Assembly (NCBI GenBank): GCA_001940895.1
Contig: MSGY01000006.1
Span: 131,179-194,512 of the forward strand
DNA length: 63,334 nucleotides
Source: Christensenellaceae bacterium Phil10
GTDB taxonomy: Bacteria > Bacillota > Clostridia > Christensenellales > CAG-917
Direction: 5' to 3'
Within the stretch, counting starts at the first letter, position 1; each line of letters opens with the position of its first letter. Both the position numbers and the translations under genes were made by a program. Of the stretch, positions 5,812 through 41,242 are shown one piece after another. The notes below the pieces were generated by a model, which ran no database searches, had not been told where the DNA came from, and saw only the letters and a program-made list of their open reading frames with translations.

Positions 5812-5829
5812 ACCAAACGATAACAACGC

Positions 5830-5866: not shown

Positions 5867-5872
5867 GTTCGT

Positions 5873-6613: not shown

Positions 6614-6736
6614 TTTTGAAATCCTCTTAAAATATGGTTAGAAATATTATAGCATATTTAGCCGATAAATCAACACGATTTATAAAAAAAGATATAAATA
6701 TCCGAAAAATGGAGATAATCAACGGGTGGAGGTTTT

Positions 6737-24937: not shown

Positions 24938-25010
24938 AAAAAAGTTATTGACTGTAAATCGTATATGCTATTATAATGAATAATATTAAATTTTTACGAG
25001 GATACCTATT

Positions 25011-27137
25011 ATGGCCGATTACGAAAGAATGAGTATCAAAGACATCTTTGCCGAAGAAGTATTTACCGACGAAGTAATGCGAAGGTATATGTCCGAGGAC
25101 GCTTATCGCGCACTCAAAGACGTTATCGCCCGCGGGGACGAGCTTCCGAGAAGTATTGCCGACGAAGTCGCATCCGCAATGAAGACGTGGGCCGTAGAGA
25201 AAGGCGCCACGCACTATACCCACTGGTTCCAACCGCTGACCGAGTACACGGCCGAAAAACACGACAGTTTTATATCCGTCGACAAAGAAGGGAAGGTTAT
25301 CCTCGATTTTTCGGGAAAGAGCCTTTCAAAAGGCGAAGCGGACGCGTCGAGTTTTCCCTCGGGAGGAATCCGCGCAACGTTCGAAGCGAGAGGATATACC
25401 GTATGGGATTGCAGTTCGCCCGCATTCATAAAAAGGTCGAAAGGAGGCGCCGGAGTTCTTTGCATACCTACGGCGTTCTGCGCGTACACGGGCGAAGCGC
25501 TGGATAAAAAAACTCCGCTGTTGCGCAGTATGAACGTTCTTAACCGCGAAGTACTGCGACTTCTCAGGCTTCTCGGAGACAAGGATACGAAAAAAGTTAC
25601 CCCCGTCGTCGGAGGCGAGCAGGAATATTTTCTTATCGATAAAAATCACTATATGCAGCGCGAAGACCTGAAATATGCGGGACGCACTCTGTTCGGCGCT
25701 CCTCCCGCTAAGGGACAGGAAAAGTCCGACCAGTATTACGCAACGATACGGGACAGAGTCGCATATTTTATGGAGGACCTCAACAAGGAATTGTGGAAAC
25801 TGGGAATCACCGCAAAAACCGAACATAACGAAGTGGCTCCCGCGCAGCACGAGCTTGCGCCCATCTATTCGGGAGTAAATATAGCAACCGACCAGAATCA
25901 GCTGATAATGGAAACGATGAAAAAGGTTGCCGAAAAACACGACCTGGCTTGCTTATTGCACGAAAAACCGTTTAACGGCGTAAACGGAAGCGGTAAACAT
26001 AATAACTGGTCGATAATCTCCGATACCGGCGTAAATCTGCTCGAGCCAGGAAGCAATCCCGCAGAAAACAGAATTTTCCTTTTGATGATTCTTGCCGTTA
26101 TCGCGGGTGTAGACGAATACGCCGACCTTGTGAGAATGAGCGCGTCCAGCGCGGGCAACGACAATCGACTCGGCGGCAACGAAGCGCCTCCGTCGATAGT
26201 GTCGGTTTTCGTGGGAGACGACCTCGAAAGCGCTTTCGAAACCTTAAAAGAAGGACGGTCGGCCGTTACGAAAGTAAAGGAATATATTAAAATGGGACTT
26301 CCCGCTTTTCCCAAGCTGAAAAAGGACAACACCGACAGAAACCGCACGTCGCCTTTTGCGTTTACCGGAAACAAGTTCGAATTCCGTATGGTCGGCAGCA
26401 GCGCGTCGCTTGCCACGTCCAATATCGTGCTTAACACGATTACCGCCGAAACGGTAAGACGTATATCCGACGAAATCGAGGAAAAAATCAAAACGAACGA
26501 CCTTGACCACGTCGTATCCGAAATTATCGTCGACCTTATCAAAAAACACGACAGAGTCATATATAACGGCAATAACTACAGCAAGGAATGGATAGAGGAA
26601 GCGAAACGTCGCGGACTGCATATGACAAACAACAGTCTCGACGCGTATAAGTGTCTGCTTGACCCCGAAATCGTCGGATTGTACGAGCGCAACGGCATTC
26701 TTACCGAAAAGGAACTTGCAAGCCGCTATGAAATATTTGTCGACAACTATACGAAAACCATAAACATCGAAGCGCTTGCCATGAGAAACATAGCAAGAAA
26801 GCAGATTCTTCCCGCGGTTATGCGCTCGGAAGGAAAAATGGCGGCGTATCTTAAAGACCTGAGAAAAATCGACGCAAATCTCGGTAAAGCCGAGGAAAAG
26901 ATTATCAGAGAAACCGACTCGCTGATAGTGGAAACCGAAATCCGCACGACCGAACTCGAAAGAGCCATCGACAAAGCGAAGATTATCGGGGATACTGTCA
27001 AAAAGGCCGAATGTTATCGCGATTGCGTCCTGACGGCTATGAACAAACTTCGCGAGAGCGTCGACGCTCTCGAGCTGATTACCGAAAAGAAAGAGTGGCC
27101 GTTCCCGTCCTACGGCGATATGCTGTTCTACGAGTAA
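25011..27137 (+). CDS. glnA: Glutamine synthetase type III
   Basis: ATHYTHWFQPLT, AEKHDSF, EQEYFL, HNEVAPAQHE, DRNRTSPFAFTGNKFEFR. Confidence 0.96.
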   Translation: MADYERMSIKDIFAEEVFTDEVMRRYMSEDAYRALKDVIARGDELPRSIADEVASAMKTWAVEKGATHYTHWFQPLTEYTAEKHDSFISVDKEGKVILDFSGKSLSKGEADASSFPSGGIRATFEARGYTVWDCSSPAFIKRSKGGAGVLCIPTAFCAYTGEALDKKTPLLRSMNVLNREVLRLLRLLGDKDTKKVTPVVGGEQEYFLIDKNHYMQREDLKYAGRTLFGAPPAKGQEKSDQYYATIRDRVAYFMEDLNKELWKLGITAKTEHNEVAPAQHELAPIYSGVNIATDQNQLIMETMKKVAEKHDLACLLHEKPFNGVNGSGKHNNWSIISDTGVNLLEPGSNPAENRIFLLMILAVIAGVDEYADLVRMSASSAGNDNRLGGNEAPPSIVSVFVGDDLESAFETLKEGRSAVTKVKEYIKMGLPAFPKLKKDNTDRNRTSPFAFTGNKFEFRMVGSSASLATSNIVLNTITAETVRRISDEIEEKIKTNDLDHVVSEIIVDLIKKHDRVIYNGNNYSKEWIEEAKRRGLHMTNNSLDAYKCLLDPEIVGLYERNGILTEKELASRYEIFVDNYTKTINIEALAMRNIARKQILPAVMRSEGKMAAYLKDLRKIDANLGKAEEKIIRETDSLIVETEIRTTELERAIDKAKIIGDTVKKAECYRDCVLTAMNKLRESVDALELITEKKEWPFPSYGDMLFYE

Positions 27138-27142
27138 AAATA

Positions 27143-28462
27143 ATGACAGATAACGAAAAAAACATTTCAGATTGCGAAAATCGTTGCGTAAAGCCCTCGG
27201 AAGTCGATTTAAAGCGAGCGGGGATAATTACCGAAACCTTTGTGGAAAAGGTTGAAAACGCCGCTTCGGTGAGAATAGGCTCGAGTGCCGAGGAGAAAAA
27301 AAGCGCAGTTGTGATACGGGATTTTTACAATAAAATTCTCGGACTTCCCGCACGGCAGGAGCCTTTTACGGTGATGCCTCTCGCAGGGCGTTTCGGCGTG
27401 CCTATTTACGGCGTGATTTACGCCGTCGCGCTTGCGTTTTATATTATAGGGATTCTTGTCGACGAGAAAAACGTATCCTATGCGTTTCTTGCGCTTGCGC
27501 TTGTAGTCTCGGCGGCGGCCGCGGCGATGATAACCGTGCAGGTATTGCTTAACCGTAATACCTTCAACGCATTGTTCCCTAAGCGCACGTCCTACAACGT
27601 TTTATCTTCTATAGAGCCCAAGGGCAATCCCGAATGCACGCTGATAATAGGCGGACATTACGACAGCGATATGGACAGATCCGACCTGTTGACGTTTCTT
27701 AAGGACAAAAATCTTCCCTCGTGGTTGTCGGGACTTTTAAAGTCGTTGTCGCTTGCGAGTCTGCCCGTATTGTTCGTGCTTGCGATAGTTGCGATGTGTC
27801 TGCCCGGGCGGAATGCCGGCACAAAGGCCTTTCTGTTTCTGTTTCCGACAATATTCTGCGGACTTGCGATATTTTATCTGATAACCGCTTTCAGCTACAA
27901 GAAAAAGAAGAACGGAAGCGTGGGCAGAGAGGGGTTGCAGGCGGCGGGTATTACGCTTGCAGTTGCGGACTATCTGAGACTTCATCCCGACCTCGTGCCC
28001 GATAATTTCAGGATAGTGCTTGCGTGTTTCGGCGCAAAGGAATGCGGAGCGAAGGGAAGCGAGCAGCTGATACTGCAACATTACGGACGGGATTCCTTTT
28101 TAATCAACCCGGTGTTTGTTAATTTCGCGAAGTTGGGAGAAAACGGAAATACGGTGATACAGGGCGACAGAAAATATAAAAACATGTACGACCTGAAACT
28201 CAACAACGTTGCTTTCAACGCGTTAAAAGACGCCGGACTGGACCCTTCGTTTGCATACAGCAAGGACCTGTTTACCGACAGTACGCCTTTCGCAAAGCAT
28301 AAAATACCGACGGTGACGGTTGAGCTGAAAAAAGGCGATAACGAGTTTTCGGGCGTATATAACGAGGCGTTCGAGGGCGCGCTCAACGTTACGCTTAATA
28401 CCGTCGACTATATGAAAAAGCGGCAGGACCGCTATAAAGGTGCCGAAGAAGAAATAATGTAA
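27143..28462 (+). CDS. Membrane M28-fold protein with degenerate active site
   Basis: Same architecture as 18249-19517 (GGHYDS, TDSTPF) but lacks several Zn/catalytic residues; ATG 5 nt after glnA stop. Confidence 0.7.
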   Translation: MTDNEKNISDCENRCVKPSEVDLKRAGIITETFVEKVENAASVRIGSSAEEKKSAVVIRDFYNKILGLPARQEPFTVMPLAGRFGVPIYGVIYAVALAFYIIGILVDEKNVSYAFLALALVVSAAAAAMITVQVLLNRNTFNALFPKRTSYNVLSSIEPKGNPECTLIIGGHYDSDMDRSDLLTFLKDKNLPSWLSGLLKSLSLASLPVLFVLAIVAMCLPGRNAGTKAFLFLFPTIFCGLAIFYLITAFSYKKKKNGSVGREGLQAAGITLAVADYLRLHPDLVPDNFRIVLACFGAKECGAKGSEQLILQHYGRDSFLINPVFVNFAKLGENGNTVIQGDRKYKNMYDLKLNNVAFNALKDAGLDPSFAYSKDLFTDSTPFAKHKIPTVTVELKKGDNEFSGVYNEAFEGALNVTLNTVDYMKKRQDRYKGAEEEIM

Positions 28463-28475
28463 TATTAAAAGAAAT

Positions 28476-28504
28476 AAAAAAGCCGCGTTTCCGACGCGGC
28501 TTTT
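28476..28504. terminator. Bidirectional intrinsic terminator
   Basis: AAAAGCCGCGT-ttccg-ACGCGGCTTTT. Confidence 0.8.
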
Positions 28505-28521
28505 GATTTAATCGGATTTAA

Positions 28522-29727
28522 TCAGACGTCGAGTTTCAACCATTCGCCTTTCAGTTTTCCCGTTTTTTCAAGAATAACGCGAAGAGCAAGAGAAACCACG
28601 GCGGGAATAACGAACATCAGGAAGATTATCGCAAGGGCGATTTTCCATCCGGGAAGCACGCCTGCCGAGGCGTTTATTACGCCGAAAACGCCTACGAGAC
28701 CGCTCGTGCCCATACCGCCGCCGGAGGCGTCGCACATAAGACCGAAAGCGCACGTGGCGAGAGGACCGGTAATCGCCGACGCGATAACGGGCGGCAAAAA
28801 GATAATCGGGTGTTTCATGATATTCGGTATCTGCAACATGCTGGTGCCTATGCCTTGCGAGATAAGACCGCTTAATCCGTTTTCCTTGAAACTCATCACG
28901 GCAAAGCCTATCATCTGGGCCGCACAGCCCACAACCGCCGCTCCGCCCGCAAGCATCATTGCTTCCGACGTGGAACCCGAGGCGATGGCAAGCCATATCG
29001 CCGCGCTGGACGTAGGCATCGTCAGAAGGACGCCCATTACCACGGAAATCACGATTCCCATGACGAAAGGCTGCGCGGTAACGGAAATTTCGATAAATTT
29101 CTGAATGACTTTAATCAGCCAGATTGCGGGATATGCCACAAACATAGAGATAAAGCACGTAAACATAACCGTTAAAGGCACGATTAGAATATCCAGTTTT
29201 GTTTTTCCCTGAACGCGCAAAACCGTTTCGAGGGCAACCAGAGTGCCGACGTACGCTCCTATCGGGTTGCCGGGAAGGCCCAGTCTGACGGTAGTAAAGG
29301 CGGTAACGGTATTTAATAACGAAAACGAACCGGCGTGCGCCGATGAATAGACCGTATCGGGAAGAAACGCCCCTGCAAAACCCGCAACCGCACAGGCAAA
29401 AATAACGAGGTCGGGCGCCTTGAGTTTCTTCGCGATGCCCACGCCGATACCCGCGCCCATCAGAGTGCAGGCTATATTGCCGATAAGTATGAGGGCGGCA
29501 CCGAAACCGCTCGATTCGCCGAACCACTTGCCTATCTGTTTTAAAATCGTACCCGCGATAAGCGTAACGAACAGGCCCTGCGCCATACCTGAAAACGCGT
29601 CGATAAAATAACGCGTCGCAAGTTTTTTAAGGATGGTTTTCCATTTTTTTCCGTTGACGTCGCCTGCGGGGACGTACGGCGGATTTGTTTCGATATCGGG
29701 GATTACCGGCGGATTATTTTCGCTCAT
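28522..29727 (-). CDS. Stand-alone PTS EIIC-like (EIIC_2) membrane protein
   Basis: FSGMAQGLFVTLIAGTIL, KTKLDIL, PTSSAAI, GIGTSMLQIPNI, GGGMGTSGLVG. Confidence 0.85.
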   Translation of the reverse strand: MSENNPPVIPDIETNPPYVPAGDVNGKKWKTILKKLATRYFIDAFSGMAQGLFVTLIAGTILKQIGKWFGESSGFGAALILIGNIACTLMGAGIGVGIAKKLKAPDLVIFACAVAGFAGAFLPDTVYSSAHAGSFSLLNTVTAFTTVRLGLPGNPIGAYVGTLVALETVLRVQGKTKLDILIVPLTVMFTCFISMFVAYPAIWLIKVIQKFIEISVTAQPFVMGIVISVVMGVLLTMPTSSAAIWLAIASGSTSEAMMLAGGAAVVGCAAQMIGFAVMSFKENGLSGLISQGIGTSMLQIPNIMKHPIIFLPPVIASAITGPLATCAFGLMCDASGGGMGTSGLVGVFGVINASAGVLPGWKIALAIIFLMFVIPAVVSLALRVILEKTGKLKGEWLKLDV

Positions 29728-29851: not shown

Positions 29852-30772
29852 TTATTTGTTTTCGTACACCCGCCAAAGAAAATCTTTTTCCTTTTTAAGC
29901 ACTATGCGCGCCGCGGGCATCCAGAGTTTCAGATTGTAGTCGTGGAAGGAGTTAAGCGGCTCGTAAGAGCAGAAGTATTCGTATTTCACGCCGTTTTCTT
30001 CAAGGGCTTTGCGAAGTTTTTTGCTGCCGCAGTTGGTAAATACGTCCTGAATGCCGTTGTTGAGGAAAAGGCGGGGGAAGTCGGGCGTAACGCCGTTAAA
30101 CACCTGCAACTGCTCGTAATAGGGATATTCCGATTTAAGTTTTTTGTAATTTTTGATACCCGTGCAGTGATACGTCATCGTGCGTATAATGGGAAGGTTG
30201 ATTATCTTCCCTTCGAAATCGATTGCGGGGCAGTTGAGAATAGCGCCTTTTATTTTTATTTCGGGCACGTCGGGAAGGCCGAGTTTCTCGCGGTATTCGG
30301 GACGAGCCTGACAGTTTATCGTCGCGACGGAAAGATGACCGCCCGCGCTGTCGCCGGAAATCACGAGATTATCGAGGTCGAGGCCGTATTTCACCGCGTT
30401 GTTCACAATCCACTGCAAGGCCTTATAAACCTGTTTCATATAATCGGGGAATTGATATTTCGGCCCGAGACAGTAGTTTATATTTATGGTAAACGCGCCC
30501 GTACGCGCCATATGCTGGCAATAGGACCTGCGCATTTTTTTATCGCCCGTAATCCAGCCGCCGCCGTGAATCATAAGAAAAACGGGAAATTTGCCCGGCG
30601 TGAGCTTTCCGCGCTGGTTTTCGTCGTAGATTATGTCGAGTTTACCCGTTTCGGGCATATCCTCGTCGTAAACTATATCTTTGATTTCGGTAAGTTCTTT
30701 ACAGGGAAAACGGTTGCAAAGAACGTATTTGATACAATCGTCGATATAAAAAACCGTGCTTAAAAGAGACAT
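29852..30772 (-). CDS. Alpha/beta hydrolase, hormone-sensitive lipase (HSL) family
   Basis: HGGGW oxyanion motif, GDSAGG nucleophile, QD and FHD triad candidates; ATG 30772 after GGAGG. Confidence 0.88.
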   Translation of the reverse strand: MSLLSTVFYIDDCIKYVLCNRFPCKELTEIKDIVYDEDMPETGKLDIIYDENQRGKLTPGKFPVFLMIHGGGWITGDKKMRRSYCQHMARTGAFTININYCLGPKYQFPDYMKQVYKALQWIVNNAVKYGLDLDNLVISGDSAGGHLSVATINCQARPEYREKLGLPDVPEIKIKGAILNCPAIDFEGKIINLPIIRTMTYHCTGIKNYKKLKSEYPYYEQLQVFNGVTPDFPRLFLNNGIQDVFTNCGSKKLRKALEENGVKYEYFCSYEPLNSFHDYNLKLWMPAARIVLKKEKDFLWRVYENK

Positions 30773-31044
30773 AATTATCCTCCGGAAATCTGTTATTATA
30801 AGTATAATAAAAATTTTCGGGATATGCAACAAAATTCGGATAATTGTCATAAGCCGCGAGAAACGGCATAAAATCGAGAGGGGATTGCCGCCCCGGGCCC
30901 CTGTTTTAAAGGAATAACCTCGGTAATTTCTTTACACAAAAAAGCAAGTGTATAATTTATTTTTTTTATGACGATTGCGTTTTGAAAAAAAGTGGCCGCT
31001 ATGGTAATATTAAATTAATAAATAAATTAAAAGGGGGTTTTCCC

Positions 31045-31833
31045 ATGGACAACATCACCAAGGCAAAAATCAATCTGTTTGCTGTTCTCAGGAACCTTGA
31101 AGATTTGTGCGAAATGGATTCCGTCTCGGCAGATATCGTCAAGGACACAAAAATCTCGGTTCAGTTCAACGTGCCCGACGTCGGCAGCGCCACGTTGGAT
31201 TTCGACCACGGCAAATGCAAATTCACCCGCGGCAAAAAACACGCGGCGTTGCAATTGTTCTTTACTTCGGCGGAGCATTTCAACAATTTAATCGACCCCC
31301 CGAAAGATAAAAACGGCAAACCGAAAACAGTCGTTCCCATTTTTTACAACGTTTTCAAAGTGGGATTTCTGCTTAATCAGTTCACGAAGCTTGCCGACCG
31401 TCTGAGTTATTATCTCCAGCCGGCGCCCGACAAGGCGGAGCAACTTCTTGCCGACCCCGAATACTTCCGTGTAAATACCGTTCTCACTTTATACACCGCA
31501 TTGTTTGCTCTTTGCGAAGTTGCCAACAGCGACAAAGTCGGCAAATTGTGCGCAAAGCGTATGTGCGACGGTAAAATTGCCGCGGGTATTCCCGGAGGAC
31601 CTCAGCTCAATATCGAGGTCAAAGACCACAAACTTTACGGCGCAAAAGGCGCAATCGACGACTGGTCGGCGCAGATGTACTTTGCGGACCTTCAGTTCGC
31701 TCACGACATTTTAAACGGAAACGCTTCGAGCTTCGGCGGAATGGGCAGCGGACAATTCCAGGTCAGAGGCCGTCTCGATATGCTTGAACAAATGGCAAAG
31801 ATGCTCAATATAGTCGGCGCATATCTCGCTTAA
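31045..31833 (+). CDS. Uncharacterised protein with probable tandem SCP2-like lipid-binding domains
   Basis: Two halves with the SCP2 pattern (VQFNV..ATLDF..GKC; LNIEVKD..G..MYF.D...IL.G....G.FQVRG); fold call by eye. Confidence 0.6.
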   Translation: MDNITKAKINLFAVLRNLEDLCEMDSVSADIVKDTKISVQFNVPDVGSATLDFDHGKCKFTRGKKHAALQLFFTSAEHFNNLIDPPKDKNGKPKTVVPIFYNVFKVGFLLNQFTKLADRLSYYLQPAPDKAEQLLADPEYFRVNTVLTLYTALFALCEVANSDKVGKLCAKRMCDGKIAAGIPGGPQLNIEVKDHKLYGAKGAIDDWSAQMYFADLQFAHDILNGNASSFGGMGSGQFQVRGRLDMLEQMAKMLNIVGAYLA

Positions 31834-31844
31834 GGAGGAATATT

Positions 31845-33134
31845 ATGAATCTCGTTTACGAACCCAAGAAAATCATTGACGTATCAAAAAGTCAGGCCAC
31901 TTTCAAAAGGGCTCTGAACTGCATTCCCGCAGGTATTTACGGACATCTCGGACCTTCCGAAGGATGTATGGTACCCGTTTCGTCCTATCCTCTTTATATG
32001 GATCACGCGCAAGGCGCGTATATCTGGGATATCGACGGCAACAGAATTATCGACTACATGTGCGGTTACGGCCCCAACTATCTCGGATATAACGACCCCG
32101 ACGTCGACGCGGCGGCGGCCGCCCAGAGAAAAAAGGGCGATTGCACGACGCTTATCAGCGATATTACCGTCGAGTTTGCGGAAGAAGTCTGCAGCACGAT
32201 AAACATGGCGGACTGGGCGTTCTTCGCCAAAAACGGCAACGACGTTACTCAGTTTGCGATGATGATTGCCCGCGCCTATACGGGCCGCAAAAAAATGGTG
32301 CTTACCAAAGGCTGGTATCACGGCGTATCTCCCTGGACGCAGAAACTCGGATATTCGGGCATAGTCGAAGAGGACGTATGCAATAACCTCTATATCGAAT
32401 GGAATCATCCCGAGCAGTTCGAAGCGCTGTGCAAACAGTACGACGGACAGATTGCGGGCTTTATTTCCCAGCCCTATCAGCACGGCAACTTCTGCGATAA
32501 CGAACTTCCCGCCCCCGGATACTGGCAGAAAATACGCGAAATCTGCGACAAATACGGCGTAGTTCTTATTATCGACGACGTGCGCGCGGGCTTCCGTATC
32601 GATATCAAAGGTTCCGATTACCATTACGGCATCAAATCCGACCTGTCTTGCTTCTGCAAGGCGATAGCAAACGGCTATAACGTATCCGTGCTTTGCGGCA
32701 ACAAGAAACTTCTCAACGCGACTTCCGACGTCGCTTATACGGGAAGTTACTGGCTGTCCGCCGTTCCTTTTGCGGCGGGTATCGCGACGCTTCGCAAGGC
32801 AAAAGCGTTAAACGCTACCGAAGAAAACGCCAAAAAGGGCAAAAAACTTACCGACGGCCTTAAAGAAATCGCAAAGGACAACGGATTCGATTTAAGAGTT
32901 ACCGGCGAGCCGGGCATGTTCTATCTGCGTCTTGCAAACGACCTGCCTTCGCGCGTAATCCATCAGGATTGGGTATGCGAATGCGTCAAACGCGGCGTAT
33001 TCTTCACGAGCCATCACAATCACTTCATAAACTATGCCCTCAGCGACGAGGACATTCAGTACACCTGGGAAGTTGCGGACGAGGCGTACAAAGTAGTACG
33101 CGAACGCTATCCTCAGGCGGAATTCATAAAATAA
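31845..33134 (+). CDS. Class III PLP aminotransferase, FumI (aminopentol aminotransferase)-like
   Basis: IPAGIYGH, IDYMCGYGPN, KNGNDVT, YHGVSPW, DDVRAGFR, catalytic K in FCKAIANGY, TGSYW. Confidence 0.85.
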   Translation: MNLVYEPKKIIDVSKSQATFKRALNCIPAGIYGHLGPSEGCMVPVSSYPLYMDHAQGAYIWDIDGNRIIDYMCGYGPNYLGYNDPDVDAAAAAQRKKGDCTTLISDITVEFAEEVCSTINMADWAFFAKNGNDVTQFAMMIARAYTGRKKMVLTKGWYHGVSPWTQKLGYSGIVEEDVCNNLYIEWNHPEQFEALCKQYDGQIAGFISQPYQHGNFCDNELPAPGYWQKIREICDKYGVVLIIDDVRAGFRIDIKGSDYHYGIKSDLSCFCKAIANGYNVSVLCGNKKLLNATSDVAYTGSYWLSAVPFAAGIATLRKAKALNATEENAKKGKKLTDGLKEIAKDNGFDLRVTGEPGMFYLRLANDLPSRVIHQDWVCECVKRGVFFTSHHNHFINYALSDEDIQYTWEVADEAYKVVRERYPQAEFIK

Positions 33135-33152: not shown

Positions 33153-34022
33153 ATGGCTTTAACTAAACAAGAGTGGATAAGGCTTGAAGAGAAAGCCGAC
33201 GAGTTGCGCAAACTCTGCGTTTACACCACGCATTGTTCGAGCGGACACATCGGCGGCAGTATGAGTGCGGCAGACGTTCTCACCGCGCTTTACTACAAGT
33301 ATATGAACTTCGACCCGAAGAATCCCGACGATCCCGACCGCGACAGATGCATCGTCTCGAAGGGACACATCGGCATTTTCCTGGCGGGTATGTTCGCCGA
33401 CCTCGGCCTTATCGACAAGGAAGAACTCAAGACGTTCAACCTTACCGGCAGCCGTCTCGGAATGCACCTCGACAGCAACAAGGTCAAAGGTCTCGACGCC
33501 TCGACCGGCTCTCTGGGACACGGACCCTCGCTTGCTCTCGGTATGGCTTATGCCGCACGTCTTAACAAACAAAACTACACGACTTACGTTATGACGGGCG
33601 ACGGCGAACTCGACGAAGGCTCCTGCTGGGAAGCGTTCATGGCGATTTCGCACTTCAAACTCACCAATCTCGTAACGATTATTGACCGCAACCATTTCAG
33701 TATCGACGGCAACACCGAAGACGTTATGGCGCTTGAACCTCTTGCGGACAAGATGACGGCGTTCGGCTTCGATACGAAAGTTATCAACGGCCATCGTTTC
33801 GACGAAATATGCGAGGCTCTCGAATACGCAAAGAAAGCCCCGAAGGGGAAACCCGTTTGCATTATTTCCGATTCCGTAAAGGGTGCGGGAATGAAACTCA
33901 CGGCAGGCAATTTCAAGTGGCACTACGGCGCCATCAACGACGAAATGTACGAAGTGTGTCTGAAAGACCTCGACGAATACAAGAAAGAGAGAATCGCGGT
34001 AGCGGAAAAGGAGGGTATATAA
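33153..34022 (+). CDS. Split transketolase-like enzyme, N-terminal (ThDP-binding) subunit
   Basis: SGHIGG, SKGH, STGSLGHG, GDGELDEG...IDRN. Confidence 0.92.
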   Translation: MALTKQEWIRLEEKADELRKLCVYTTHCSSGHIGGSMSAADVLTALYYKYMNFDPKNPDDPDRDRCIVSKGHIGIFLAGMFADLGLIDKEELKTFNLTGSRLGMHLDSNKVKGLDASTGSLGHGPSLALGMAYAARLNKQNYTTYVMTGDGELDEGSCWEAFMAISHFKLTNLVTIIDRNHFSIDGNTEDVMALEPLADKMTAFGFDTKVINGHRFDEICEALEYAKKAPKGKPVCIISDSVKGAGMKLTAGNFKWHYGAINDEMYEVCLKDLDEYKKERIAVAEKEGI

Positions 34023-34023
34023 T

Positions 34024-35109
34024 ATGGCTGGCGGATTAGTTTATACAGCGCTTGAAAGCACTTCAATGGCCACGGCGGAAATCTACGGCAAAACTCTCGT
34101 CAAACTGGGCGAGCAGAATCCCAAAATCGTAGCACTTACCGCAGACCTTAAAGGTTCAACCAAAATCGGCGACTTCGCGGCAAAATTCCCCGAAAGAACC
34201 ATCAACGTCGGTATTGCCGAACAGAATATGTACGGTATGGCGGCGGGTCTCGCGAAATGCGGATTCATTCCCTTCGCGTCCTCGTTCTCGGTATTTGCGT
34301 CTCTCCGTGCTCTCGACCAGATTCACACCGATATCTGCTATCAGAACGTCAACGTGAAAATAATCGGTACGCACGGCGGCACCTCGTTCGGACAGGCGGG
34401 TTCCACCCACCACGCAATCGAGGACTTTGCTGTTATCCGTTCGCTTGCGAATATGACTCTTATCTGCCCTGCAGACGGTATCGAAACGGGCAAAGCGGTC
34501 GAGGCGGCGGCAAACACCGAAGGCCCCTTCTATATCCGTATTAACCGCGGTTTCGACCAGACTGTTTACGCAGACGACAAATACGATTTCGAAGTAGGCA
34601 AAGCCGTTCTTCTTAACGAAGGCAACGATATCACGATTATCGCATGCGGTTCCTGCGTATATCAGGCTGTTCAGGCGGCGAAGATTCTTAAGTACGACCA
34701 CGATATCAACGCTCGCGTCCTCAATATGCACACCATTAAACCTATCGACAGAGAAGCTATTTTGTCGGCGGTAAACGATACGAGACGCATTATCACCGCT
34801 GAAGACCATTCGGTTATCGGCGGTCTCGGCAGCGCCGTTGCGGAAGTCGTCATCGAAGCGGGCAAAGCGTGCGCGTTCAGAAAACTCGGCATTCAGGACC
34901 AGTTCAGTAAAATCGGTCTGCACGAGGATCTTATGGCTATGCACGAAATCGACGCCGAAGGCATCGTGAAAAACGCTCTCGAAGTTATCAATCAGGACTT
35001 CGAAAAAGAGGGCGTTCACGGTTCGGCCGTCAAAGCGGAAGGCGCCGGAAAAGCGGCTTCCGCCGTTAAACTTGCTCCTCAGGGCGCAAACTGGGTTGAC
35101 GAGGTATAA
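34024..35109 (+). CDS. Split transketolase-like enzyme, C-terminal subunit
   Basis: ADL, GIAEQN, TH..ED, IKPID, AEDH..IGGLG. Confidence 0.92.
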   Translation: MAGGLVYTALESTSMATAEIYGKTLVKLGEQNPKIVALTADLKGSTKIGDFAAKFPERTINVGIAEQNMYGMAAGLAKCGFIPFASSFSVFASLRALDQIHTDICYQNVNVKIIGTHGGTSFGQAGSTHHAIEDFAVIRSLANMTLICPADGIETGKAVEAAANTEGPFYIRINRGFDQTVYADDKYDFEVGKAVLLNEGNDITIIACGSCVYQAVQAAKILKYDHDINARVLNMHTIKPIDREAILSAVNDTRRIITAEDHSVIGGLGSAVAEVVIEAGKACAFRKLGIQDQFSKIGLHEDLMAMHEIDAEGIVKNALEVINQDFEKEGVHGSAVKAEGAGKAASAVKLAPQGANWVDEV

Positions 35110-35112
35110 ATT

Positions 35113-35949
35113 ATGGCAATGACTGCAGGCGATAAATACGCGCTGAGACTTTTCTTCTTCGCGGCTATTCCCCTGGCAAAAACCGTTGCCGAAAACGACC
35201 CGAAATTCGTAAAGAAATTCAAGGGTAAAAATTTCGTTTTCCAAATCAGCGTTTTGTCTCCGGAATTCAAGAAGACGGGAAAACTTTCGACGCATTTCGT
35301 CGTCAAAGACGGCAAGTGGGAAACTCACACCGGCGAGACTCATCCCCGTCCCGACGTCGAACTGGAATTTTCAAATCCCGATAAGTTCATTCTTTTCTTC
35401 ACGGGCAAGGGTATGCCTCTTCCCAAAATCAAAGGAGCGCTTGCGCATCTTCCCACGTTCGTCAACATTCTGATGACGCTTCTGAGAATGGCGGGTCTCC
35501 TTCAGGCGACGGACGTCCCCGCAAAACCCGAAGACCAGGAACTTCTCGTGCTTTTGTATATCAATCTTCTGACAGTGGGCGTAAGCCAGCTCAACAGGGT
35601 GGAACATCCGGGAGTAAAGGCTTTCACCACGGGAAGTCCCGACCGCGTATATGCTTTTGCGGTAACGGGATATGAGAAACTTCAGGGATGGCTCCGCGTG
35701 AAAGACGGACAGACCGTTTCCGGCAGAGGAGAGTGCAAGCGTTGCAAACCTTTCGTATGTATGCGTTTCGACTCACCTAAGCACGCGCTCGAAATCCTTA
35801 TGAGTAAAGCCGAAATGATACCCTATATGCAAAACGGATATCTTACCATCGAAGGCGCGCCCGAATTCGGCAACGAGCTTTCGATACAGTTGTTCACCGT
35901 TGCGTACTACGCGCAGGGAACTTATCTCGACGATCAGAAAAAACAATAA
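35113..35949 (+). CDS. Second tandem SCP2-like protein (paralogue of 31045-31833)
   Basis: FVFQISV..HFVVKDG..PDVELEF; WLRVKDG..G..MRFDS...IL.......NGYLTIEG. Confidence 0.6.
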   Translation: MAMTAGDKYALRLFFFAAIPLAKTVAENDPKFVKKFKGKNFVFQISVLSPEFKKTGKLSTHFVVKDGKWETHTGETHPRPDVELEFSNPDKFILFFTGKGMPLPKIKGALAHLPTFVNILMTLLRMAGLLQATDVPAKPEDQELLVLLYINLLTVGVSQLNRVEHPGVKAFTTGSPDRVYAFAVTGYEKLQGWLRVKDGQTVSGRGECKRCKPFVCMRFDSPKHALEILMSKAEMIPYMQNGYLTIEGAPEFGNELSIQLFTVAYYAQGTYLDDQKKQ

Positions 35950-36028: not shown

Positions 36029-37192
36029 TCAGATGCTGTAATTTTCCGAAGACATACGTTCTTCGTGCTCGGCGTCGATGAGCTTCAGCGTAGCGTTTAG
36101 TTTCTTATTGCACGCTACGTACAGAGTATATGCCGCAAGTCCGACTATCTTTACCGAGGAATGAAAAATATTCGAAGCGTTTATCGCCTGTATTTCGTTG
36201 TCGGGATACAGGAGACTGCCGAACGGAATGAAGTCCATTATGCCGTAAACTACGGCAAACAGTATGCTTGCAAGACCCATTCTGAGATAAACCTCGCCGT
36301 ATTTCGCGCTCTTTTTCTTTCCTGCGGCAATTATTATTCCGAGTATCAGTAAAGCGGCGACCGTAATCCCGTCAACCGTTTCGTATGCAATGAAAACCGA
36401 ATGCTGTTTTTCGGGATAGAGCGAGCCGAACGCCTCGATAAAGGGAAGGACGACGAGATGTATTAACATAAACGTCACTGCGATTATCGCGGGTTTTACG
36501 ATGCCGGGTTTGAATTCCGTCTCTTCGCCGGCAGGAAGAAGGTTTTTCTTTTTTTCGTGACGGGAGTGTGCGAGGAAAATGCCGTATTCGATTACGACTC
36601 GCAAAGCGAGAATAGTCATACCGATGTCTTCGATAAACGGGGTTTTTATGCCGATGAGTCTAAGAGGAGCCCAGAATAACGTTACTTTGGTATCGTAATT
36701 GAATGCGGTAAGGAATATACAAGCCGCTATCGACGATACGGCGGACGTGTAAAAATATCTGACGTGTCTCGTGTGGCTGTGAAAATTGAGGAAAGTGAGC
36801 AAAAGACAGGTGAACGCGTTTGCAAGATAAAGAGCCGCTATTGCCGATACCCACGGTATATACGTGCTGACCGTGGTATAGTCGGATAAAAACGTGTAAT
36901 TCTGTACGTTGAAATGCACGAGAGTAATCCAGAAAGCGACGATTTCGGTGGCTACGTAAAGGATTTCTTTTTTGTTTGAAAGAGGAGAAAAGTTTCTGAA
37001 ATCTATGTAGCCGAGCACGAAAACGACGGGAATGACAATCATCAATACGAGATTAACGATTGCGGCCGCTTTTACGCTGTCTTTTGAAATAGCAAAAAGG
37101 TTAACCGCGCTCAGAACGGCAAACACGGCAAGCAGAAACCAATATATGTTAAGCAGCGCTTTTCTTTTTTCGTCAGAAGTTCCTTTTTCCAT
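36029..37192 (-). CDS. Polytopic membrane protein of unknown function
   Basis: About 10-11 hydrophobic segments; start uncertain (ATG 37192 chosen). Confidence 0.65.
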   Translation of the reverse strand: MEKGTSDEKRKALLNIYWFLLAVFAVLSAVNLFAISKDSVKAAAIVNLVLMIVIPVVFVLGYIDFRNFSPLSNKKEILYVATEIVAFWITLVHFNVQNYTFLSDYTTVSTYIPWVSAIAALYLANAFTCLLLTFLNFHSHTRHVRYFYTSAVSSIAACIFLTAFNYDTKVTLFWAPLRLIGIKTPFIEDIGMTILALRVVIEYGIFLAHSRHEKKKNLLPAGEETEFKPGIVKPAIIAVTFMLIHLVVLPFIEAFGSLYPEKQHSVFIAYETVDGITVAALLILGIIIAAGKKKSAKYGEVYLRMGLASILFAVVYGIMDFIPFGSLLYPDNEIQAINASNIFHSSVKIVGLAAYTLYVACNKKLNATLKLIDAEHEERMSSENYSI

Positions 37193-37300
37193 ATAACAAT
37201 TAAATGCTATCATAATTCGACAAAAAATCAAAACGATTTAATTAAGACGAATTGTAAATAATGTATAAATTTTTGACATTAATATACAATAATCAATATT

Positions 37301-37767: not shown

Positions 37768-38412
37768 TTATTTTTTGTATGTTTTGTTAAAGTATTCGAC
37801 GGATAAATCCACGGAATATTCGTCGGCGCCCGTTTTCTTGACGGTTTCGCGCTCGATATATTCGCGGCATCCGTTTTCAAGCGCGCGGCACGCTTCGAAA
37901 GCGTCTTCCATCGTTTTGCCGCAGACGAAGACGCCGTGGTTTGCAAGAAAACACGCGTTGCGTCCTTCAATTGCGGCAAGGGCGTTTTTCGTGAGTTTAC
38001 CGGTGCCGGCAAGACCGTATTTCGCGCATTTTACGTCGCCGCCGAGATATTTTTTCATGTTATCGTTCATAGCGGGCAACGAGAGATGAGTGCTTGCAAA
38101 CGTCGCGCCCCACGTGGGATGACTGTGAAGAACGACGTTTATTTCGGGTCTTGCGCGAAGAATCGCCGCGTGAATTTTTCTTTCGCTGGTCGGTTTTCTC
38201 GGACCCGTCCATTCGAGGGTTTCGATATCGACGACGGGAAGGTCGTCGGGCGTCATTACGACGTAGTCGAGTCCCGAAGGGGTTACGAGGGCGTGTTTAT
38301 CGTCTATGCGCACCGAAATATTGCCCCACGTGCCTTGCACGAGGTTTTCTTCAAGCATACGGATGCCCGCGTCTTTTACCATTTGTCTCAATTCCTGTTC
38401 GGTATAAGCCAT
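37768..38412 (-). CDS. Class II aldolase, L-fuculose-1-phosphate aldolase-like
   Basis: GTWGNIS, TPSG, PTSE..IH, LHSHP, LANHG: catalytic Glu and three Zn His present. Confidence 0.88.
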   Translation of the reverse strand: MAYTEQELRQMVKDAGIRMLEENLVQGTWGNISVRIDDKHALVTPSGLDYVVMTPDDLPVVDIETLEWTGPRKPTSERKIHAAILRARPEINVVLHSHPTWGATFASTHLSLPAMNDNMKKYLGGDVKCAKYGLAGTGKLTKNALAAIEGRNACFLANHGVFVCGKTMEDAFEACRALENGCREYIERETVKKTGADEYSVDLSVEYFNKTYKK

Positions 38413-38421
38413 AAAAACCTC

Positions 38422-39075
38422 CTATTCGCGCTCGGCTTTGAGCAATTCTTCCTGGTTGGTCTTGCTGTATTTTTTCATATAGACGACGTGTTCGAGCAGG
38501 GCGCCGATTTTTCCCACGGGTTTGCAACCGCCGACGGCTTGCGACATAATAAGAGTATGCGCGGCCTTGTCGATGACGAGGCAGGAAGTAAAAGCCTCGT
38601 TCAGCGTTTTGCCGGTTGACAGAATTCCTATGTCCGAAAGCAGGCACGCCGTACGGCCTTTAAGCGCTTTTCTGATGCCCGAAATATCGTTGGTTTTTGC
38701 CGTTCTTGCGGTGGGACCGACTATCTGCGCCATATCGTCGAGAACGGGCGGTATGGAAACTTTTTTGTTGGCGACGGCAAGCGCGAAAACGGGAGATGTA
38801 ACCATGACCGCGCCCGTAAGAGGATTTTCTCTGTAAAGCTTAACGTGCATGAGAGCCTCTTTCAGAGTATCCGAAGGACAACGGTCGGTTTTATCGAAAA
38901 ATACCTCAATCACGTCTTCAGCGTTCAAATCTTTAAAATTAACGCCCGATTTCGTAATATACATACTGTTTTCGGTCGCGCGTACGCTGATGTTGTTGAC
39001 GTTGCTTCCGAAAAGATTTTCGTCAAAAACCTTATGCGCGTATTCCACGACGGTGTTTTGAAGTTTTGCGTTCAT
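38422..39075 (-). CDS. Class II aldolase/adducin-fold protein lacking the Zn ligands
   Basis: NNISVR, ITKSG, E...H retained, but HxH replaced by VTS and NHG by DIG. Confidence 0.75.
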   Translation of the reverse strand: MNAKLQNTVVEYAHKVFDENLFGSNVNNISVRATENSMYITKSGVNFKDLNAEDVIEVFFDKTDRCPSDTLKEALMHVKLYRENPLTGAVMVTSPVFALAVANKKVSIPPVLDDMAQIVGPTARTAKTNDISGIRKALKGRTACLLSDIGILSTGKTLNEAFTSCLVIDKAAHTLIMSQAVGGCKPVGKIGALLEHVVYMKKYSKTNQEELLKAERE

Positions 39076-39086
39076 ATCTTCACCTT

Positions 39087-39118
39087 AAAAAGAGCGGGCG
39101 GAAGGTTATTCCGCCCGC
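39087..39118 (-). terminator. Intra-operonic hairpin (weak terminator or mRNA stabiliser)
   Basis: GCGGGCGGAA-N5-TTCCGCCCGC followed on the minus strand by TCTTTT, directly before the aldolase SD. Confidence 0.55.
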
Positions 39119-39127
39119 GCAACGGTT

Positions 39128-40657
39128 TTATTTCTTTTTGTCGAAACTGCGTTGAAGTTCGGGCGAGCCCTGCGCTTTGACAAGCGAGAAAACTTTATCG
39201 AAGCGTTCGAGAGCGGCGTCGATAACTTCGTCGGTATCGGCCATAGAAGTGTAAAGGCGGCTTCCCGCAAGGGTTACTATTCCGTTTGCCATATACGCGG
39301 CGCCCATGTCTTTCATCGCTTCTGCGCGCGCTTCCATTTCGGCTTTGTTTTTAAGAAGTCCGACAGCCGATTTGAGGAAACTGAAACTGCTGTAATCGAA
39401 ACTCATTGCGCCCGTGCATTCGAGGTGAACGATACTGCCCTGATTGTAAACGACGTAGGGCAGATTGTGTTTTTTGACGAGTTCTTTAAGACCGGCGGCA
39501 AGCCTGTCTCCGGCAATACCCGCTTTTTCGCAGGCGTTGTATTTTTCGATTGCTTTGATGCAGCAGTATCCCGCGTAAGCAGACAAGGGGTTTGCCGCCA
39601 GAGTTCCGCCGACGTATGCTTTCTTGCCGAGACCCGCAACGCCCGCGGCCATAAGGGAAATATATTCGCGTTTGCCGCCGACGCCGCCCGCAGCGGGATA
39701 TCCGCCGGCGATGATTTTACCGAAAATGGTAAGGTCGGGTTTGACGTTGAAGAAGCCCTGAGCGCCGCCGAGACCCATACGGAAGCCGGTAACGACTTCG
39801 TCGAAGATGAACAGAGCGCCGTATTTGTGAGCAAGTTCGAGGGCTTGTTTATTGTAATCGAAATCGATGGGACGGGTGCCGCTTTCGGGGCCGACAGGCT
39901 CCACGATTACGCAGGCCGTGCCTCCGCGGAGTTTATTGCGGCGAAGCATGCCTTCGAGCATTTTGAGGTCGTTGGGGCGAACTTCGTCGGTCGTGCCGAA
40001 ACATCCTTTGGGAATGCCGTGGCTTTCAAGGAGATTGCGGCTGCCGGGAATTTTAAGGCCGTACACCATCTGGTCGGACCAGCCGTGATATGCGCCGCCT
40101 ACTTTGATGACGCGTTTATTTTTGGTTGCGCAACGGGATACGCGGATAGCCGCCATAACCGATTCGGTACCCGAGCCGAGCATACGGAACATTTCGCACG
40201 CGGGCATGTGTTTATTGATTTCTTTGGCAAGAAGAAGTTCGGCCTCGTGGAAAAGTCCTGTTACCGGACCGCAGGATTTTATAAGTTCGATAGCCTGTTC
40301 CTGAACCTCGGGGAAGTTGCTTCCGAGGATGGTGGGGCCGCCCGCTTGCAGGAAGTCGAAATATTTATTTCCGTCCGCGTCGTAGAGATAGGCGCCTTCG
40401 GCCTTTACCATACACATGGGGAAGGGCTTATTGAAGGCAAGATTGTGCTGGACGCCGCCGGGAATAAAATTTTTGGCTTCGGCGGTTATCGCTTTGGATT
40501 TGGCGCATTTTTTATCGAAATAATTTTCGACGATATCTTTATACGCTTCGTCCGAAACGCAATAAATGGGTTTACTGGTGAGTTCGTGCAATTCGTTGTA
40601 AATATCCTGCGCCTTGGGCCATTTGCCCGGATCGCAAGCATAGCCGTTTCTGCTCAT
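39128..40657 (-). CDS. Class III PLP aminotransferase (GSA-aminomutase-like, N-terminally extended)
   Basis: IPGGVQHN, SGTE, AYHG, DEVVTGFR, PDLTIFGKIIAGG, GGTLAANP. Confidence 0.88.
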   Translation of the reverse strand: MSRNGYACDPGKWPKAQDIYNELHELTSKPIYCVSDEAYKDIVENYFDKKCAKSKAITAEAKNFIPGGVQHNLAFNKPFPMCMVKAEGAYLYDADGNKYFDFLQAGGPTILGSNFPEVQEQAIELIKSCGPVTGLFHEAELLLAKEINKHMPACEMFRMLGSGTESVMAAIRVSRCATKNKRVIKVGGAYHGWSDQMVYGLKIPGSRNLLESHGIPKGCFGTTDEVRPNDLKMLEGMLRRNKLRGGTACVIVEPVGPESGTRPIDFDYNKQALELAHKYGALFIFDEVVTGFRMGLGGAQGFFNVKPDLTIFGKIIAGGYPAAGGVGGKREYISLMAAGVAGLGKKAYVGGTLAANPLSAYAGYCCIKAIEKYNACEKAGIAGDRLAAGLKELVKKHNLPYVVYNQGSIVHLECTGAMSFDYSSFSFLKSAVGLLKNKAEMEARAEAMKDMGAAYMANGIVTLAGSRLYTSMADTDEVIDAALERFDKVFSLVKAQGSPELQRSFDKKK

Positions 40658-40669
40658 GAGTTTGTCCTC

Positions 40670-41242
40670 CTAACTTTTGATATAATTGATGAATTTGTCT
40701 ATCGATTCTTTTATTTCCGCCTCTTCGAAAGGGCGGTCTTTAATAAAGCGTTGGAAAATTATTCCGAAGTACGCGCCGAGAACGTAAGCCGACAAATCCT
40801 CGGCCGTAAACGTTTCAAGCGCCTTTTTATAACTCGGGTGAGTTTTTATGCGTTCCTCGGCAAGGTTATAAATTCTGACGAAAGAGCTTTCGCCCTTGCA
40901 GAGGATACCTCTCATAAGAAGATTGCCCGTAAGATAAGGGTAGGGGATGGTATCGTCCACGAGCTTATTGATAAGAGCGGTAATCGAAAATCCGCTGTCC
41001 GCGTCGTCCCATACCGCAACGAGGTCGTTGATTTCTTCGGCGGCGATTTGCTCGATAAGGTCGTCGAGAGAAGAAAAATGAGTGAAAAAAGTGCTGCGCG
41101 ACACGTCGGCGCTTTCCGAAATTTCGTCGATGGTAACGTTTCCGAGACCTTTTTCCTCGAAAAGTTTTTTAGCTGCGTGCAACAACGCTTTGTGCGTGTT
41201 GTTTTTTTTGCGAAGCCTGCGGGAACCTTCAATATCGGCCAT
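40670..41242 (-). CDS. TetR/AcrR-family regulator
   Basis: AAKKLFEEKG..NVTIDEISESADVSRSTFFTHF. Confidence 0.93.
   Translation of the reverse strand: MADIEGSRRLRKKNNTHKALLHAAKKLFEEKGLGNVTIDEISESADVSRSTFFTHFSSLDDLIEQIAAEEINDLVAVWDDADSGFSITALINKLVDDTIPYPYLTGNLLMRGILCKGESSFVRIYNLAEERIKTHPSYKKALETFTAEDLSAYVLGAYFGIIFQRFIKDRPFEEAEIKESIDKFINYIKS

Follow-up and report, generated by a model that had tools for sequence, protein, structure and literature searches.

A split transketolase with an altered substrate pocket, encoded with an aminotransferase and two predicted SCP2-fold proteins in gut Clostridia, suggests a C–C bond step on a lipid

The window analyzed here is a 63,334-nucleotide stretch of DNA from Christensenellaceae bacterium Phil10 (assembly GCA_001940895.1; contig MSGY01000006.1, positions 131,179–194,512 of the forward strand). 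It encodes a five-gene operon in which the genes for the two subunits of a split transketolase (TK), TKN and TKC, are accompanied by those for an aminotransferase (AT) and two predicted SCP2-fold proteins (scpA and scpB); the analysis suggests that this transketolase acts on a lipid, not on two sugar phosphates, and that it provides the C–C bond step of the module. The genes are located on one strand in the order scpA-AT-TKN-TKC-scpB, with 1–18 bases between genes and with GGAGG sites 5′ of AT and of TKN:

31045–31833, forward strand: scpA, 262-residue predicted SCP2-fold protein (the mechanically called open reading frame (ORF) starts at TTG 30982; its homologues start at ATG 31045)
31845–33134, forward strand: AT, class-III pyridoxal phosphate (PLP) aminotransferase, FumI-like (Pfam Aminotran_3, 5e-40)
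33153–34022, forward strand: TKN, 289 residues, thiamine diphosphate (ThDP) diphosphate-binding N-terminal subunit of the split transketolase (Pfam Transketolase_N, 2e-39)
34024–35109, forward strand: TKC, 361 residues, subunit with the pyrimidine-binding and C-terminal domains (Pfam Transket_pyr, 1e-39; Transketolase_C, 1e-27)
35089–35106, forward strand: C-terminal tail of TKC (NWVDEV), after a linker of variable length
35113–35949, forward strand: scpB, 278 residues, two SCP2-like halves (Pfam SCP2, E-value 1.5e-4)

An earlier sequence-only reading had described 33153–35109 as a single transketolase with an altered pocket; its motifs are found where it placed them, but the span consists of two ORFs separated by one base (the frame-1 translation ends at TAA 34020–34022), that is, a split enzyme. 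The three Pfam domains Transketolase_N, Transket_pyr, and Transketolase_C are spread over TKN and TKC with scores of 136, 136, and 96 bits, each exceeding its Pfam cut-off. The best PDB relatives are 6yaj for TKC (1.7e-83) and 6yak for TKN (5.5e-61), both chains of the Carboxydothermus hydrogenoformans split transketolase (ChTK). With the NCBIfam model NF004559, TKN scores 250 bits and TKC 282 bits against a cut-off of 488, which applies to a full-length model of which each gene is half. TKN does not have the signature of DXS-type enzymes: the position of TK H100, occupied by Phe or Tyr in DXS (PMC13663882), is His in TKN, and Transketolase_N scores 136 bits vs 48 bits for DXP_synthase_N. Judged by these matches, TKN and TKC together are a split, ThDP-dependent transketolase.

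We aligned TKN and TKC each to the sequence of Escherichia coli TktA, and the alignment locates the following replaced residues:

33438–33440, forward strand: Asn96 of TKN, aligned with E. coli R91, the salt-bridge partner of D469
34075–34077, forward strand: Ala18 of TKC, aligned with E. coli R358, a phosphate ligand
34393–34398, forward strand: Gln124-Ala125 of TKC, aligned with E. coli E468-D469

Ala18 belongs to the motif ATA (TKC residues 16–18) and Ala125 (codon GCG, 34396–34398) to the motif GQAGSTHH (TKC residues 123–130), in which His130 is also a change (Q474 in E. coli). The sequence-only reading had singled out these two motifs, and the changes are real: the alignment to TktA, which it had set as a test, places no Asp at the D469 position and no Arg at the R358 position, and what it stated about the two residues agrees with the published descriptions (PMC11387542, PMC5073344). 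Both members of the R91-D469 pair, which form a salt bridge in the E. coli enzyme (PMC5073344), are replaced. The catalytic apparatus is intact, as had also been claimed, the ThDP-binding and catalytic His and Glu residues being invariant columns in the alignment: TKN retains the ThDP/metal motif (G154-D155-G156 … N185), E160, and H26, H66, H100, and H261 (TktA numbering), and TKC retains D381, F434, F437, E411 (E66 in TKC, the cofactor-activating Glu), and H473 (H129 in TKC). All five donor-site histidines (H26, H66, H100, H261, and H473) are, then, kept across the two subunits. The E. coli residues R358, S385, H461, and R520 bind the substrate phosphate (PMC11387542); three of the four are kept in TKC (S385 as S45, H461 as H117, R520 as R175), and R358 is lost (Ala18).

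The roles described for these residues allow the pocket to be interpreted. H26, H100, H261, D469, and H473 hydrogen-bond the sugar hydroxyls (PMC11387542); D469 selects the stereoisomer, is a principal target of engineering (PMC11387542, PMC7661550), and is said to be indispensable for the efficient conversion of sugars (PMC11387542), and a lineage of D469 variants shifted E. coli TK towards non-polar aliphatic aldehydes (PMC5073344). The polar ligands that are lost here (D469, R91, and R358) would be those that face the substrate beyond C3. Because the donor-site histidines including H100 are kept, we argue that the donor would have the structure CH2OH-CO-CHOH; because the phosphate triad is invariant, we argue that the second substrate of this ping-pong enzyme would still be a sugar phosphate.

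A scan for homologous loci with one genome per species yields 36 loci (L001–L036), 29 of them with at least 64% identity in TKC; these 29, referred to below as the clade, all belong to records of uncultured Clostridia, Christensenellales, and the like, sampled from animal guts, digesters, and a termite. Judged from the sequences, the substitutions are fixed in the clade, not drifting. In 120 homologues sharing 63% identity or more, the residue aligned with D469 is never Asp (112 have Ala and 8 have Gly); in the 115 whose R358 position is readable by the pattern (five are unread), that position is occupied by Ala, Ser, or Thr and never by Arg. ‘TFN’, with Asn96, is present in the 27 clade loci where the pattern was read (L001–L004 and L006–L028; L005 and L029 unread), and S45, E66, H117, Q124, H129, H130, and R175 are invariant in 25 of 25 clade TKC sequences. 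The expectation of a ‘non-phosphorylated’ substrate in the sequence-only reading survives in part: R358 is lost, but with S45, H117, and R175 invariant in those 25 sequences the term can apply to no more than one of the pair of substrates that a ping-pong enzyme uses. In 146 representatives of the 50%-identity clusters nearest TKC (aligned with MAFFT), position 18 is Arg in 115, and position 125 is Asp in 78, Leu in 19, Ala in 13, and Gly in 11; a natural split TK of the D469L type has been reported (PMC13663882). By sequence, loss of the Asp is common among split transketolases generally, and it is the pair of changes at R358 and D469 that marks this clade.

ChTK resembles TKN and TKC in its two-gene α2β2 architecture and in its cofactor and histidine set (PMC7661550), but it has IATRE, GEDGASHQ, and FRK where MATAE, GQAGSTHH, and FNL are present here; it is described without any substitution of R358, S385, D469, or R520 (PMC7661550), and the aligned ChTK chain has no W-x-DEV tail. 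In E. coli TktA, positions D469, R358, and R520 have been altered in the laboratory for non-phosphorylated aliphatic and aromatic aldehydes (PMC5073344, PMC7661550), and D469 and R358 are altered here as well; unlike the engineered variants, however, the enzyme of this clade is natural and clade-fixed, has lost R91 too, leaves S385 and R520 unchanged, and is encoded with lipid-carrier-like proteins.

The operon is conserved with the pocket. All five genes occur in the same order in 21 of the 29 loci (two of these with a 3-kb insert); of the remaining loci, three are cut by a contig end, three contain only TKN-TKC-scpB, and two contain only TKN-TKC. In two of the three TKN-TKC-scpB loci, AT (59% identity) is encoded elsewhere in the genome, in one of the two with an scpA-like gene ahead of it; a split module (genome G004) thus has the parts [scpA-like + AT] and [TKN-TKC-scpB]. 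In the two TKN-TKC-only loci (L023 and L029), TKC has no tail and the fetched flank contains no scpB; the genomes of these loci contain no close match to the FumI-like AT, with only a 30%-identical class-III protein (7.5e-27) in one (G006) and nothing at E-values of 10−20 or below in the other (G007). A sister clade consists of L059 (from the window's own family) and L060; its TKC proteins (49–57% identity) have GAAGSTHH or GTAGTTHH, that is, Ala at the D469 position, together with a W-acidic tail and a distant scpB-like gene downstream, and L059 also encodes AT (75% identity), scpA (63%), and a homologue of the EIIC-like protein described below. Of 401 genomes sampled from the phylum, only five were found to contain the scpB family, which makes the module an accessory trait. 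As side observations, L026 (positions 4357–7084) and a like stretch of L027 contain five extra genes between AT and TKN, four of them small and without a Pfam family and one encoding a trypsin-like peptidase; among these extra genes and the neighbors in L059 and L060, none informs the function.

The best PDB chain for AT is 6hbs, ‘Aminopentol aminotransferase’ (FumI), with 304.7 bits (1.1e-89); the next family, represented by the best glutamate-1-semialdehyde aminomutase, scores 153.6 bits, and AT is below every NCBIfam cut-off. The PLP-binding Lys in DLSCFCK aligns with that in DLSCWGK of FumI. Some AT homologues are named ‘glutamate-1-semialdehyde aminomutase’ (others are unnamed); we rejected this name because the FumI score is twice as high. 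With its class-III fold, its PLP Lys, and its closeness to FumI, AT is predicted to be a FumI-type aminotransferase. FumI, encoded by the fumonisin cluster of Sphingopyxis, moves the C2 amino group of hydrolysed fumonisin B1 (HFB1), a sphinganine-like C20 amino-polyol with a 2-amino-3-ol end, to pyruvate (PMC3136697). This is like the role that we propose for AT, the removal of the C2 amino group of a long-chain amino alcohol; FumI differs in that it is from an aerobic proteobacterium and that its substrate is a 1-deoxy base, and in the FumI paper we found no mention of a transketolase in the cluster or of a step after 2-keto-HFB1 (PMC3136697).

The two remaining proteins are assigned from their structural models. 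The 17 scpA homologues that were aligned start with MDN(V/I)TKAK; scpA has no match in Pfam or NCBIfam, but its AlphaFold model (pLDDT 90.4) is matched by Foldseek to SCP2, UbiJ-SCP2, and the alkylsulfatase C-terminal domain in the PDB, with E-values of 5e-5 to 1e-3 and TM scores of 0.55–0.65 when normalized to single-domain SCP2 targets. For scpB, the Pfam SCP2 score is 22.5 bits (cut-off 21.3), and no individual stretch reaches the cut-off; in its model (pLDDT 93.2), residues 143–266 superpose on human SCP-2L (VIA-align; Z 12.8, rmsd 2.5 Å, 113 of 116 residues), and the N-terminal half (6–162) is matched more weakly to TT1886 (Z 8.9). Both models match only SCP2-type structures (SCP2, MFE-2 SCP-2L, UbiJ-SCP2, and the alkylsulfatase C-terminal domain). 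BLASTP finds no significant similarity between scpA and scpB (best E-value 3.3), so the likeness of the two models is one of fold only; the ESM Atlas places both in clusters of ‘hypothetical protein’ only. On these models, scpA and scpB are predicted to have the SCP2 fold and to be lipid-carrier-like. UbiJ and UbiT provide a parallel, an SCP2 domain that accompanies soluble enzymes acting on a lipid head group in ubiquinone synthesis; UbiJ-SCP2 is among the fold matches of scpA and scpB, but no sequence kinship is detected, and here there are two proteins with two SCP2-like halves each.

A possible link between scpB and the transketolase is the acidic tail of TKC. The tail ([DEN]W-x-D-[ED]-[VI]) is present in 25 clade loci, with W357 and D359 invariant in the 25 sequences, and absent from L023, L029, and L030–L036; scpB adjoins TKC in 24 of 24 assessable tailed loci, and the tail is absent wherever scpB is absent (the loci are kin, so the co-occurrence does not amount to a statistical test). 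In complex predictions, TKC 190–361 and scpB give an ipSAE of 0.47 vs 0.01 for the best control; the runs agree in at least 88% of the contacts, and the partner pLDDT is at least 89. The ipSAE mark is reached by 116 of 157 solved complexes and two of 215 mismatches, and at values of 0.60 or below by 18 of the 157 and by both mismatches. We also note that in L006 (positions 8001–8942; a 98%-identical chromosome record) the TKC frame departs near the C-terminus, resulting in a 314-residue ORF with an unrelated end and no W-x-DEV tail; this is probably a sequencing or assembly indel in the metagenome-assembled genome.

The genomes of relatives add two observations that bear on function. In L025, the operon extends, with overlapping genes, into genes for a TetR regulator and a class-3 (fatty-aldehyde-type) aldehyde dehydrogenase, whose PDB matches include 6k0z (3e-131), ALDH3A1, and the fatty aldehyde dehydrogenase 4qgk (1.9e-113). 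No ketoacyl synthase (PF00109) is found in three of three relatives' genomes (G001, G002, and G003, reached via L006, L025, and L011), although the control search was positive in 14 of 14 known genomes; G001 is a complete 1.5-Mb chromosome, 98% identical at TKC. These small-genome relatives appear from their sequences to be without type II fatty acid synthesis. G001 also contains one other transketolase-type pair, its sole other such pair (L044, C1:315456–318941; TKN2 at 1998–2816 and TKC2 at 1057–1998, both on the reverse strand), which is located beside a gene for a GalE-like epimerase and is itself non-canonical, with Asn at D469, Asp at H461, and Cys at S385, and Arg kept at R358 and R520.

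The surroundings of the operon in the window include the following features:

28522–29727, reverse strand: EIIC-like membrane protein, divergent from the operon (Pfam PTS_EIIC_2, 1.3e-69)
30982–31010, forward strand: promoter-like site TTGAAA-17-TAATAT with TG, directly upstream of scpA (a weak feature, by consensus match only)

A homologue of the EIIC-like protein adjoins the module in L001, L011, L020, L021, and L059; by this association, it may be an importer. The region contains 10 promoter-like sites vs 7.0 ± 2.4 in shuffles, and in the scan of the region for promoters and terminators the counts are not above those of shuffles. Contigs from four RNA/metatranscriptome runs (three studies) cover the operon, bridging AT-TKN and TKN-TKC-scpB, although contigs are no proof of transcription; upstream, 26202–28004 has no contig in any of the four RNA runs and 25000–28605 has none in three, and because an uncovered part proves nothing we do not use this as evidence. 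The stretch itself is found in at least 20 runs from 11 studies, mostly of pig-gut and other gut metagenomes.

Several neighboring genes are recorded as observations in their own right. A hormone-sensitive-lipase-family esterase (Abhydrolase_3; 29852–30850, reverse strand) is encoded between the EIIC-like gene and the operon; its conservation at this position is limited to L006. Directly downstream of the operon, 36029–37231 (reverse strand) encodes a 400-residue multi-pass membrane protein of no Pfam or NCBIfam family, homologues of which (31–61% identity) are near the cassette in L001, L002, and L006. A second small operon (37768–41242, reverse strand) consists of genes for a TetR regulator (40670–41242), a 509-residue class-III aminotransferase (39128–40657) nearest the glutamate-1-semialdehyde aminomutases (PDB 4e77, 4e-60), and two class-II aldolase/adducin-family proteins (38422–39075 and 37768–38412), the latter like FucA and ribulose-1-phosphate aldolase and below cut-offs. 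L002, L006, and L011 also have a homologue of this aminotransferase no more than 8 kb from the cassette, and RNA-library contigs cover this second operon. Farther away, 9496–10821 (reverse strand) encodes a geranylgeranyl-reductase-family flavoprotein, an unusual lipid enzyme in a Clostridia genome; among the NCBIfam models it matches the archaeal-type digeranylgeranylglycerophospholipid reductase best, at 163 bits, well short of the cut-off of 580.

The explanation that we favor, tentatively and as somewhat short of an even chance, is a catabolic or salvage route in which a long-chain 2-amino-1,3-diol is converted to a ketodiol and this to a fatty aldehyde and a C2 unit that is placed on a sugar phosphate. 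In this route, scpA would hold the 2-amino-1,3-diol, that is, a sphingoid base or close analogue obtained from the feed, the host, or sphingolipid-making neighbors; AT would transfer the C2 amino group to a keto acid, generating a 1,3-dihydroxy-2-ketone; and the transketolase would cleave the C2–C3 bond, with the replacement of D469, R91, and R358 by Ala, Asn, and Ala making room for the alkyl chain. The fatty aldehyde would then leave, probably to scpB, which may be docked by the acidic W-x-DEV tail of TKC, and the ThDP-bound C2 unit would be transferred to an aldose phosphate, for which the retained S385, H461, and R520 would provide the binding site. Overall, the base would be detoxified, and its nitrogen, C2 unit, and acyl chain would be salvaged by bacteria that seem unable to make fatty acids. 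The sequence-only reading had proposed the release of a plain fatty aldehyde from a keto-sphinganine; this lipid idea now gains support from the FumI-like AT, the two SCP2-fold proteins, and the class-3 aldehyde dehydrogenase in the operon of one relative. Together with hosts that seem to be without fatty acid synthesis, these same elements make the cleavage scheme the simplest explanation.

A number of points weigh against this scheme. One is stereochemical and had been raised in the sequence-only reading as a caveat, which our independent reasoning with the CIP rules finds to be correct: at C3 the priorities are OH > C2 > C4 > H in both sphinganine and its 2-keto form, so natural D-erythro-sphinganine (2S,3R) would give a 3R ketodiol, whereas the 3S configuration is the one found in transketolase substrates and products. 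For ten wild-type split TKs, the canonical (S)-selectivity is reported to be retained, although the conclusions of that paper say ‘almost all’ (PMC13663882). One of three options is favored by this mismatch: that the base is threo (3S), that the selectivity is altered, or that the enzyme works in the synthetic direction. The amino end of fumonisin is probably 2S,3S, and fumonisin is a 1-deoxy base. The substrate of FumI, being 1-deoxy, is one that a TK-type donor site with H100 should not prefer. The pocket is not simply ‘de-phosphorylated’, as three of the four phosphate ligands are kept; 68 of the 146 split-TK cluster representatives are without the Asp, so its loss alone is not diagnostic; and the sister locus L060 keeps Arg at the R358 position, so the change at R358 is not essential to the module. 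The SCP2 fold that is modeled for scpA and scpB is no proof of lipid binding, and the predicted docking of TKC and scpB lends weak support. The aldehyde dehydrogenase is present in one locus only (L025), with only weak Aldedh matches in G001, and the neighboring EIIC-like protein belongs to a sugar-type transporter family. Beyond the residue mapping, the fold, and the gene order, we infer everything in the scheme: substrate, direction, and partner roles alike.

The main rival of cleavage is the same chemistry in reverse, in which a fatty aldehyde is extended by a C2 ketol that the transketolase takes from a ketose phosphate or hydroxypyruvate, and AT then aminates C2, so that a sphingoid-type 2-amino-1,3-diol is made without serine palmitoyltransferase; we regard this as unlikely, though it deserves to be weighed seriously. 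Both reactions are reversible, the same logic applies to the pocket (D469 variants favor aliphatic acceptors; PMC5073344), and the stereochemistry needs no reversal because a canonical TK makes a 3S ketodiol. The combination also has precedents: for the synthesis of chiral amino alcohols, a transketolase–transaminase cascade is well established (PMC5813273), and AniP and AniQ of anisomycin biosynthesis are a natural biosynthetic pair of a TK-family enzyme and an aminotransferase (PMC11387542). AniP has Trp at D469 and has lost phosphate ligands; it differs from the enzyme described here in that it is full-length, is without the histidine-rich motif, acts on aromatic keto acids, and is a biosynthetic enzyme of actinomycetes (PMC11387542). 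Phytosphingosine production by one species of Clostridia has been reported, without the genes being named (PMC11914097), but no Flavonifractor record is among the 36 loci of our scan, which reaches close relatives only. The cassette and its immediate neighbors encode neither a carboxylate or acyl-CoA reductase that could supply the fatty aldehyde nor a ceramide synthase, an acyltransferase, or a head-group enzyme; the carriers, as seen in three genomes, have no ketoacyl synthase. The nearest characterized aminotransferase, FumI, is catabolic, and the additions in L025, an NAD(P)-type class-3 aldehyde dehydrogenase and a TetR regulator, form a pattern typical of catabolic or detoxifying operons.

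An explanation without lipids, which we consider improbable, is that the substrate of AT and the transketolase is a small amino-polyol or amino-deoxy-ketose, brought in by the EIIC-like permease, with the SCP2 proteins serving as scaffolds or regulators. The EIIC-like gene is beside the module in the window and in five other loci; S385, H461, and R520 are retained; and SCP2-like folds are also found as structural domains, for example, in Eis acetyltransferases. This does not explain why two SCP2-fold genes, each encoding two halves, are conserved in the operon and why the tail of TKC tracks scpB; moreover, each of the changes at D469, R91, and R358 takes away a polar ligand, the nearest solved relative of AT acts on a C20 lipid-like amine, and L025 encodes the class-3 aldehyde dehydrogenase.

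The one known transketolase that acts on a lipophilic substrate is DesAB, in which the products of the adjacent genes desA and desB (N- and C-terminal transketolase) form a steroid-17,20-desmolase (PMC12876203, PMC3735941), and a similar enzyme here would cleave the side chain of a steroid ketol (17-hydroxy-20-keto-21-ol) held by the SCP2 ‘sterol carrier’ proteins. DesAB of Clostridium scindens is also a split TK of gut Clostridia that acts on the ketol of a lipophilic molecule (PMC12876203), the carriers of the module live in animal guts, and both flanking proteins have the predicted SCP2 fold. Compared by description only, the desAB operon nevertheless differs in encoding hydroxysteroid dehydrogenases (HSDHs) and a transporter and neither an aminotransferase nor SCP2 proteins, and in its ketone product (PMC12876203). 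Neither the cassette nor the rest of the window encodes a hydroxysteroid dehydrogenase (desC/desE) or a transporter of the desD type, the conserved FumI-like AT has no role in desmolase chemistry, and a desmolase yields a 17-ketone, not an aldehyde; we consider the steroid substrate very improbable.

Little credence can be given to an ordinary pentose-phosphate transketolase with tolerated drift and unrelated operon neighbors, even though all catalytic residues and three phosphate ligands are intact, Asp loss is frequent among split TKs, and G001 has only two transketolase-type Pyr-domain genes, the other of which is also non-canonical (Asn at D469, Asp at H461): the arrangement with AT and both SCP2 genes persists in 21 of 29 loci and extends to the sister clade, the rarity of scpB (five of 401 phylum genomes) marks an accessory trait, efficient sugar catalysis is said to require D469 (PMC11387542), and the substitutions are fixed, not drifting.

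Returning to cleavage of a sphingoid base, one known route for free bases consists of phosphorylation by sphingosine kinase followed by the PLP enzyme sphingosine-1-phosphate (S1P) lyase, which releases a fatty aldehyde. This route and sphBCD of Pseudomonas aeruginosa share with the proposed module the substrate class and a non-toxic end product; sphBCD involves a periplasmic oxidase and cytochrome c, and the product of sphBC is described as still unknown (PMC11398299). Unlike the module described here, neither uses ThDP chemistry or SCP2 proteins. The synthetic transketolase–transaminase cascade has the same pairing of enzymes and makes amino alcohols (PMC5813273). In the literature, of which our coverage is incomplete and includes few subscription journals, we found no description of this cassette or of a transketolase in sphingoid metabolism. 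The transketolase is a new natural variant, and the pathway would be new if confirmed. Taken to its full extent, the proposal is of an undescribed, phosphorylation-independent pathway for free sphingoid bases in gut Clostridia unable to make fatty acids, in which a FumI-like transaminase, a lipid-adapted split transketolase, and dedicated SCP2 chaperones (one docked by the tail) cut the C2–C3 bond, or, in reverse, provide a synthesis free of serine palmitoyltransferase; this complete version is rather unlikely.

If true, this would be the first transketolase of sphingolipid metabolism and the natural counterpart of the laboratory transketolase–transaminase cascade, and it would widen the range of transketolase reactions, for which DesAB is so far the one lipophilic example known. 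Little is known about how bacteria get rid of free sphingoid bases or acquire them, and a five-gene module with a clear chemical hypothesis makes the question directly testable. The clade also offers a natural biocatalyst in which changes of the D469/R358 type are already present, together with its own partner transaminase. For gut ecology, the module is found in pig and other gut metagenomes and RNA libraries, and sphingoid bases and sphinganine-like mycotoxin backbones occur in the gut. Even if the hypothesis is wrong, the clade is a well-defined, abundant, and uncharacterized subfamily of split transketolases.

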